Positions 61,509-62,614 of a DNA stretch of 64,000 nucleotides are shown in pieces. Made by a program: the position numbers and the translations under genes. How positions within the stretch are numbered: the stretch's first letter is position 1; every line of letters begins with the position of its first letter. The notes beneath the pieces were generated by a model, which was not told where the DNA came from, made no database searches, and worked only from the letters and a program-made list of their open reading frames with translations. This DNA comes from a virus: the IMG/VR virus record IMGVR_UViG_3300006077_000002, positions 1 to 64,000 of that record; one strand, written 5' to 3'.

Positions 61509-62492
61509 GTGTTACTAATAGTTACACCTCTGTTACCTTTCGTAACACTTCAACAATTCTTTTCCTATTTAAGCAAGACTTAAGAAAGAACTCACCTCAG
61601 AAACTCCTTATATTTAATATAAGTGTTACCATTCGTAACACAACAGAAATAAACAGGTGTACCTAAGGTCACGCTTAAGGTCTATCGAAGGTTACATCTG
61701 AGTGAAAAATTCTTTTTGTGCTTTAAGCATATCTTAAGGAAGAACTCGCATAGGCTAAAAAGAGGCTCCTTCATAACATACCTTCAAATAAGCTTAAAGT
61801 CTAAATGATAATGATTATCATAGTCACTTTCATTTCACTTTTTGACTCTTAAAAGGGTAAAAAATACACCCCTAAAAACAGGGCTATAAACGCCCTAAAA
61901 TCGCTTAAAGGCACGAAAAAACGGTATGAATATATTGATGTACTAAACAGCGTTATACACGTACAGACCCCTTAAAAGGCTTTTAAAGGTGATAATGATA
62001 ATCAATACGGACTGTATAACTTTTAACCAATTTGTTGTATAAAAAGTAATCAATAAGAAAAACTTATACTGATAACGATAATCAATACCATAAAGGGACG
62101 GCACGCTAAATGATAACGATAACCAAAATCAAAACCAAAGGACTCCTAAAGTTAATTGATAACGATACTCAATATCATAACCGCTATTCTAATTGATAAT
62201 GATAACTAATATCATAACCAAAGGACTCTAAAGCTAATTGATAACGATAACCAAAATCAAAACCAAAGGACAATAAGGGCTAATTGATAATGGTTATCAC
62301 TATCAGAACACTTTAGGTCACGCCCTAAATGATAATGACTATCAATATCGCCCCTGAGAACTCTTCTAATTGATAATGATTATCACTATCGCACCCCTGA
62401 AGTAGGACTAAATGATAACGATTATCAATACGGCTAGTGACGATGAAATTCCAAATTAAAGCGTCAATTCAGGGTGTTACGAAAGGTAACAC
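61509..62492. promoter_or_regulatory. Four palindromic GTGTTAC-N5-GTAACAC operator-like sites
   Basis: 61509-61527, 61530-61548, 61623-61641, 62474-62492. Confidence 0.65.
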
Positions 62493-62614
62493 AACAGAAA
62501 AAAACATTGCTTGAAAAAGGCGATTTAAGCTTAGATTAAGAAAGAAGTGGGTACTCTCGCACGTTGCGTGTTTCTATATACTTTTTAAGGGCAACTAAAT
62601 GAGAATGATTATCA
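61806..62614. promoter_or_regulatory. Array of ~12 Fur-box-like sites (TGATAATnATTATCA)
   Basis: 15-mers starting at 61806, 61990, 62070, 62111, 62157, 62194, 62239, 62285, 62330, 62371, 62413, 62600. Confidence 0.8.

Follow-up and report, generated by a model that had tools for sequence, protein, structure and literature searches.

The virus record IMGVR_UViG_3300006077_000002, referred to here as the vent phage, carries 12 sites resembling the binding box of the iron sensor Fur within positions 61806-62614 of its first 64 kb; this 64,000-nucleotide stretch is the window of our analysis. The sites lie inside a 2-kb hub that is free of open reading frames (ORFs). We tentatively read the array as a lineage-specific, tandemly expanded set of operator-grade sites for the Fur protein of the host, which would act as a barrier or landmark in cis; taken as a whole, we hold this reading to have somewhat less than an even chance of being right. 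Contigs used for comparison are labeled with L-numbers.

A motif scan of the window located exact copies of the 15-mer TGATAATGATTATCA at 61806 and 62371 and variants with no more than three mismatches at ten further positions, namely 61990, 62600, and the eight remaining starts of the core array (Table 1). Matches of this type, counted on both strands, numbered 35 against 4.67 expected, and none of 100 shuffled sequences reached this count. When scored as the 7-1-7 inverted repeat TGATAATnATTATCA, two sites were exact and ten had one to three mismatches, the Fur consensus of the host being assumed. The longer 19-bp Fur box, GATAATGATAATCATTATC, was matched by 11 of the 12 copies with 2 to 5 mismatches and by 10 with at most 4. 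Across the 93.8-kb genome, 19-mers within five mismatches of this box numbered 35, of which 32 were in the 61.7- to 62.7-kb interval. The boxes are confined to the hub and so do not make up a distributed operator set. All 12 left half-sites begin with TGA, and 11 of them read TGATAA, the half-sites taking the form TGATAAT or TGATAAC. In Bacillus subtilis, specificity follows a rule in which TGATAAT half-sites belong to Fur, TTATAAT half-sites to PerR, and TCGTAAT half-sites to Zur. By this rule, the half-site bases of the vent phage boxes are of the Fur type and not of the PerR or Zur type.

The array units are all co-oriented, with the consensus CTAAW-TGATAAYGATWATCA-ATATC, and TAA(A/T) directly precedes 10 of the 12 copies. 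The nine consecutive core copies are spaced by 41, 46, 37, 45, 46, 45, 41, and 42 bp (mean, 42.9 bp), and within units the box is kept while the spacers vary. In addition to an exact 33-bp duplication, the repeat finder TRF identified tandem units of 83 bp and 45 bp in the array. A sequence-only reading of the window had described two exact sites with ten variants, nine consecutive copies (62070-62427) at intervals of 37-46 bp, TAA(A/T) in front of most copies, extension of several copies to the 19-bp form, and a 33-bp duplication that pointed to expansion by tandem copying, all of it in noncoding DNA. The measurements agree with each of these points: the hub holds no credible ORF, and extension to the 19-bp form applies to nearly all copies. 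The same reading had placed the copies about four helical turns apart. This regularity was not recovered, since the spacing ranges over 37-46 bp and the vector strength of the core copies was only 0.14-0.30 at periods of 10-11 bp.

Table 1. Positions of the array, its outlying boxes, and neighboring elements in the window
Feature	Coordinates	Strand	Remarks
ORF-free hub	61325..63357	.	Between the + block 59020-61324, which adjoins TerL, and the small early-type + genes from 63358
Core array, nine co-oriented units	62070..62432	+	Starts 62070, 62111, 62157, 62194, 62239, 62285, 62330, 62371, 62413; each 2-5 mismatches from the 19-bp box
Outlying box 1, perfect 15-mer	61806..61825	+	Ends a module of palindrome, TTTAAGC..CTTAAGRAAGAA element, and box
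Outlying box 2, TGATAATGATAATCA, 1 mismatch	61990..62008	+	Motif scan
Outlying box 12, TGAGAATGATTATCA, 1 mismatch	62600..62614	+	Ends a second module built like that of box 1
33-bp duplication, first copy	62111..62143	+	Part of the 83-bp and 45-bp tandem units
33-bp duplication, second copy	62239..62271	+	Exact copy
C-rich short tandem repeats, 15 bp x2.5 (ATAACCTCCCCCAGA) and 23 bp x3.1 (CCCCCAGAATAACCTTAGGGGAA)	61321..61413	+	Left edge of hub, directly after the stop of ORF 60548-61324
GTTAC-N5-GTAAC palindrome 1	61531..61548	.	Pattern search
GTTAC-N5-GTAAC palindrome 2	61623..61641	.	Pattern search
GTTAC-N5-GTAAC palindrome 3	62474..62492	.	Right of the core array

Comparison with relatives bears on the age of the array. 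Two syntenic relatives in IMG/VR have major capsid proteins 87% and 81% identical to that of the vent phage and large terminases (TerL) 82% and 75% identical. In the sister phage L105, a homologous hub lies between the homologues of ORFs 60548-61324 and 63358-64152 and keeps C-rich repeats and three GTTAC-type palindromes similar to those of the vent phage (L105:2130-2620). This hub contains no Fur box; at the position aligning with box 1 of the vent phage, there is a single degenerate half box, CTAACTGATAACGACTCGCA, and the array is therefore lineage specific and recently expanded. Together with this half box, the exact 33-bp duplicate and the 83-bp and 45-bp tandem units show recent growth in copy number by tandem copying, probably from a single site. 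All four ORFs that flank the hub on the left (59020-61324) have homologues in the sister phage. A search with ORF 60548-61324 and a metagenome protein scan revealed no closer relative that bears an array, and the family of ORF 63358-64152 has only two homologues. A DNA pattern specific to the vent phage gave only two matches in metagenomes, an unrelated array of three boxes (L181) and a junk match.

We searched for the same motif in IMG/VR with a pattern of two full palindromic boxes 35-51 bp apart, using as a control the complement of this pattern, which has equal composition and symmetry. The two-box pattern matched 86 stretches, and the control matched none. These stretches represent 42 clusters without megablast links, span GC contents of 0.21 to 0.63, hold 2-13 boxes each, and are located mostly in ORF-free DNA; many of the array-bearing phages carry only 2-5 boxes. 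A first pattern, consisting of three TGATAAYGAT cores, had been dropped, as most of its 96 matches fell on (GATAAT)n-type hexamer runs within the coding repeats of giant viruses. The largest IMG/VR array, L031, has at least 13 boxes and includes an 89-bp unit with two perfect boxes, alternating 40-bp and 49-bp spacing, which is repeated at least four times, up to the contig end. Spacing differs among phages, from 24 to 50 bp, and in some other phages TGCGAAT and TACGAAT half-sites are mixed within an array. In an all-against-all ORF comparison, no neighboring protein family was common to the array-bearing clusters except TerL, mobile HNH proteins, and GP88 lineage markers. Arrays were not significantly enriched at contig ends (5 clusters within 300 bp against 2.1 expected; Kolmogorov-Smirnov P = 0.24).

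Applied to 596 Gb of bacterial genomes, this pattern matched only 62 stretches, 56 of them with just 2-3 boxes; large spaced Fur-box arrays are uncommon in bacteria. The most extensive spaced array in this collection comprises 14 units of the CTAATTGATAATGATTATCATTA type, spaced by ~35 bp, at the end of a 9.5-kb contig of a Mollicutes metagenome-assembled genome (MAG) (CAMELE010000061.1; L206:920-1500), and it may belong to a mobile element. Another contig, assigned to a Sulfurimonas sp. MAG (JAKISX010000007.1; L212:100-200), starts with 49-bp tandem units carrying AAATGATAACGATTATCAATAT, the same box variant that the vent phage has at 62413, and an HNH-like ORF follows. The contig may derive from a phage and have been binned with a vent Campylobacterota genome, and it offers a weak hint about the host of the vent phage.

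The arrays occupy a consistent place on the map. TerL was in view in 16 independent clusters, and in every one of them the array was upstream of the TerL 5' end, at a distance of 0.16-6.6 kb; were both sides of TerL equally likely, such an outcome would have a probability of ~1.5e-5. Three TerL families are found near arrays, one of which was identified weakly, by a Terminase_6C match. Genes of the T5 A1/A2/dmp type flank arrays in four environmental clusters (L134, L135, L168, and L124). In L135, a distant T5-like contig, the Fur boxes are directly followed by paired DnaA boxes (TGTGGATAA; L135:7720-8060), and both host-factor motifs thus travel together beyond the enterobacterial T5 group.

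One environmental array (L097) matched T5-like phages by BLAST, inside their left terminal repeat. In T5 itself, the array occupies 9540-9730, and the motif coincides with copies 1-4 of direct repeat C and with palindromes E-I (9468-9637 in AY587007). These repeat units are immediately to the left of "major nick 1, 7.9%" and at the place where the first-step-transfer DNA is estimated to shear, and they sit between convergent transcription units, behind a terminator and not at a promoter. Boxes with at most one mismatch are confined, in T5 and phiR2-01, to the terminal repeats and their immediate flanks, and the reversed control gave none; the terminal repeat of phiR2-01 carries six boxes. A perfect Fur box, TGATAATCATTATCA, was also observed in the 3' part of dmp near the extreme left end of T5 (NC_005859, 233-247), where it is kept in phiR2-01 (NC_019919, 149-163) and in a T5-like IMG/VR genome (L134:233-247); with the boxes of the repeat region, it brackets the first-step-transfer DNA. 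The phi92-like coliphage ECGD1 has two box clusters. As judged by sequence, the motif in these cultured coliphages equals the Fur consensus of the host. No cluster was present in the Vibrio T5-like phages VCPH and River4, each of which has at most one box with up to one mismatch in its whole record, and the feature is therefore not universal in Demerecviridae.

The closest counterpart of the vent phage array is Repeat Region 3 of T5, which contains direct repeat C copies 1-4 and palindromes E-I within or beside the DRE repeats of Davison. Both regions are untranslated and consist of tandem core units of the TTAAATGAGAATCATTATCATT type in several co-oriented copies (30-58 bp apart in T5), and both phages are siphoviruses with related terminases. 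T5 differs in that it has 3-7 units, several of which are half-sites, placed in a 10-kb terminal repeat beside DnaA boxes, the 7.9% nick, and A1/A2/dmp, whereas the vent phage has 12 fuller sites, and no DnaA boxes, A1/A2/dmp, or long terminal repeat were found in it. ECGD1 resembles the vent phage in that Fur-consensus clusters are restricted to noncoding hubs beside early genes, the vent phage having one such hub with a tandemly expanded array. Davison's comparison of 25 T5-like phages stressed the extreme conservation of these repeats and discussed the DnaA boxes; Fur and iron are absent from it. A recent treatment of T5 considers the function of the repeats impossible to guess. In the open-access literature, outside which most subscription journals fall, we found no paper that connects Fur with arrays in phages or with the T5 injection-stop region.

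Chromosomal Fur operators, such as that of the aerobactin gene iucA, have the same sequence as the vent phage boxes at both the 15-bp and the 19-bp level. Chromosomal Fur sites overlap promoters and, in 6-bp steps, one another, and multisite promoters such as that of iucA are among them. In the vent phage, by contrast, 12 separate sites follow one another at intervals of about 43 bp and lie outside promoters. Clusters of high-affinity protein-binding sites outside promoters that serve in titration or in nucleoprotein structure include E. coli datA (DnaA), the P1 incA iterons, and the integration host factor (IHF) site in lambda cosB. They resemble the vent phage array in being clusters of sites for host or DNA-binding proteins away from promoters and differ in the proteins bound. 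We know of no Fur-based titration or structural locus among systems of the datA type, and of none that forms a widespread array across unrelated virulent phages.

The vent phage is uncultured; its record of 93,817 bp has a 99-bp end overlap, as expected of a circular assembly, and the sole public run that contains it is a hydrothermal vent metagenome. The genome is that of a siphovirus, with tape measure, major capsid, portal, and large terminase genes on the minus strand at 23-59 kb and replication and nucleotide-metabolism genes on the plus strand. TerL (57532-58899, minus strand) is ~25% identical to T5-type terminases of Demerecviridae. Four plus-strand ORFs without an assigned function (59020-61324) adjoin the hub, to the right of which ~10 kb of small, early-type plus-strand genes begin at 63358; the replication genes are ~45 kb away. 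Searches with the T5 proteins, using tblastn and phmmer, found no homologues of A1, A2, or dmp below an E value of 0.02, and there are no DnaA boxes (TTWTNCACA) within 61300-63400. NrdA (3781-5460) and NrdB (5723-6718) were both found, in accord with the sequence-only reading, which had credited the phage with a class Ia NrdB. The same reading had taken the array to mark a putative first-injected end. This was not borne out, as the assembly is circular with a 99-bp overlap and contig depth reveals no twofold terminal repeat: Logan contigs, which come from the probable source sample only, have depths of 16.8, 22.3, 15.2, and 16.1 over 56-76 kb. The Logan contigs are interrupted at two repeats, the 23-bp tandem repeat and the 33-bp duplicate. 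A 757-bp contig covering the left half of the hub (61384-62140; L106:5384-6140) accounts for the depth of 22.3 against 15-17 in its flanks, which could reflect a short terminal repeat, a segment common to a related strain, or noise.

The vent phage genome contains no Fur gene, and the binder would therefore be a host protein. A Fur-family protein of the host is the most economical candidate, and we consider it probable that the sites bind one, because the motif is constant across phages that have no other DNA or neighbor proteins in common, occurs over a wide range of GC contents, coincides with the host consensus in coliphages, and is missing as an array from the sister phage, all without a phage-encoded Fur. 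The identity of the motif as a Fur box, proposed from the letters of the window, is thus consistent with the comparative evidence as well (42 viral clusters, none with the control, and the coliphages). Metal-loaded Fur occupies a 19-bp box as two dimers, and the 12 boxes could therefore load up to about two dozen Fur dimers over 0.8 kb. A stretch coated in this way would constitute a barrier or landmark in cis where the packaging-side module meets the early genes. RNA polymerase, or the DNA being translocated into the cell, could be halted or held there, and the halting step would be made dependent on the iron state of the host. The vent phage array would then be the same kind of element as direct repeat C beside the 7.9% nick of T5. 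We favor a role in cis over titration or promoter control because the operator and sponge roles fit less well, but this choice is itself tentative and a little more likely to be wrong than right.

The sequence-only reading had put forward three possible functions, namely a Fur sponge, an iron sensor, and a protein-loading handle for DNA entry. In a sponge role, replicated genomes, present in hundreds of copies with 12 sites each, would titrate Fur, de-repress iron uptake, and feed iron enzymes such as the di-iron NrdB. The array does look like a decoy in that it offers many strong, nonoverlapping predicted sites outside promoters, and its tandem growth, like the 89-bp unit repeated at least four times in L031, resembles the outcome of selection for dosage. 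The phage has genes for both NrdA and NrdB, the site numbers are plausible against the few thousand Fur molecules present in an E. coli cell, and a sponge needs no particular spacing or phasing, as observed. However, a pure sponge does not require a position upstream of TerL, which was seen in 16 of 16 clusters, nor does it readily account for the many phages with only 2-5 boxes or for a sister phage that has no array. T5 and its relatives conserve the same repeats, yet they are described as rapidly degrading host DNA, which would leave no regulon to de-repress; this weakens the sponge as a general explanation, and we regard it as unlikely. Alternatively, Fur bound at the hub could be an iron-gated operator that represses early promoters downstream, or activates them by displacing silencers, making early transcription iron dependent. 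The last box (62600) is ~60-190 bp upstream of two extended -10-like sequences, seen by eye near 62680 and 62789, and the early genes begin at 63358. L168 has two perfect boxes 100-190 bp upstream of the dmp-A1-A2 operon, and in the L042 group a strong TTGTAC-17-TATAAT promoter follows ~100 bp after the end of the array. Nevertheless, 12 spaced sites over 0.8 kb exceed what an operator needs, and the early remark that they are far more than one promoter needs holds. A sigma-70-type scan detected no excess of promoter-like sites (9 against 9.9 expected), and no scored promoter overlapped the core boxes consistently. Since the sites are so numerous and spaced, do not overlap promoters, and in T5 are located between convergent units, an operator role fits poorly, and we judge it improbable.

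The resemblance to Fur boxes might also be only apparent, with the repeats serving as iterons or as a packaging site for a replication, partition, or small-terminase protein of the phage. Direct repeats of ~20 bp at ~40-bp spacing do resemble iterons or pac-site repeats, in each of the 16 clusters with TerL in view the array is upstream of the terminase module, and four ORFs of unassigned function adjoin the hub. A site of this kind should be specific to a lineage, whereas the motif is found in 42 unrelated clusters with three TerL families and no common neighbor other than the mobile HNH proteins and lineage markers. Moreover, the array is missing from the sister phage, in which the four flanking ORFs have homologues, the replication genes are ~45 kb away, the coliphage motif equals the host Fur consensus, and the phage-specific GTTAC-N5-GTAAC palindromes are better candidates for the site of a phage protein. 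We find this explanation marginally harder still to credit than the operator. The least probable of the alternatives, and in our estimate a very unlikely one, is that the sites belong to another host regulator of the Fur family (PerR, Zur, or Mur) or to an unrelated protein of AT-rich DNA, or that they are a selfish tandem repeat without a partner. The TGCGAAT and TACGAAT half-sites of some other phages lean toward Mur or Zur; against this, the vent phage half-sites, TGATAAT and TGATAAC, are of the Fur type, the control pattern of equal composition had 0 matches, and the box is kept while spacers vary within units.

Several points weigh against the barrier or landmark role in cis that we favor. 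The sister phage manages without an array, which is therefore not essential to the lineage. The absence of helical phasing and the range of spacings across phages, 24-50 bp, argue against one fixed higher-order structure, and the placement of the L168 boxes fits promoter control better. The conserved map position may merely reflect the fact that the hub is the main noncoding space. Since the vent phage lacks A1/A2/dmp, DnaA boxes, and a visible long terminal repeat, a two-step injection cannot be deduced for it, and an iron-dependent barrier would be of no obvious benefit.

A broader proposal is that spaced Fur-box arrays are a general cis element of virulent phages that hijacks the iron sensor of the host at the edge of the early region, that Fur is the missing host factor of the T5-like injection pause, and that the vent phage, with its nonenteric vent host, is the most expanded natural example; we think this quite unlikely to hold in full. 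If it did, the element would either be ancient or have been invented anew several times in different phage families and bacterial phyla. The cause of the halt in T5 injection after 8% of the genome has been open for more than 50 years, and if Fur binds the T5 repeats, it would be a concrete, testable host factor for the pause. The presence of arrays of this type in the vent phage and in 42 unrelated clusters suggests that virulent phages of many hosts recruit the host metal sensor onto their own DNA. Infection would then be linked to iron availability, which is relevant to iron-poor oceans and iron-rich vents, and the arrays would form a new class of host-factor sites that present annotation pipelines ignore. 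What is new here is the finding, in a nonenteric, uncultured vent phage, of one of the largest arrays that the present scans recovered, the IMG/VR-wide count with a matched control and its contrast with bacterial genomes, the rule that arrays are upstream of TerL, and the sister phage without an array.

The hub contains further elements besides the boxes. The core array is flanked by two copies of a larger module (Table 1). The GTTAC-N5-GTAAC palindromes, of which there are three in the 93.8-kb genome, all inside the hub, are likely operators of a phage-encoded dimeric regulator. The hub has no Rfam match and no tRNA, and its DNA showed no similarity to cultured phages at an E value of 1e-5 and only short, box-sized matches at an E value of 1. 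Short repeats at T7-type genome ends resemble the C-rich repeats at the left edge of the hub, which by analogy may mark a terminus or packaging site; comparable short repeats were also observed beside Fur-box arrays in L031, L053, L116, L135, and L151. In the 61000-62700 interval, TTAAG/CTTAA is enriched (22 against 6.8 expected), as is CTTAAG (6 against 1.1 expected), and both are frequent in the L105 hub too.

Outside the hub, a gene for an HNH-AP2 homing endonuclease (9713-10219) is located between a ClpP-like gene and a ligase gene. Its homologues occur in six array-bearing contigs, near several of the arrays and in three copies in L142. We judged the association of this gene with the arrays incidental because it encodes a homing endonuclease; the GP88 family received the same verdict. 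The early or middle region also encodes a PIN-PhoH fusion protein (7120-8382) and a ClpP-like protease (8780-9478).

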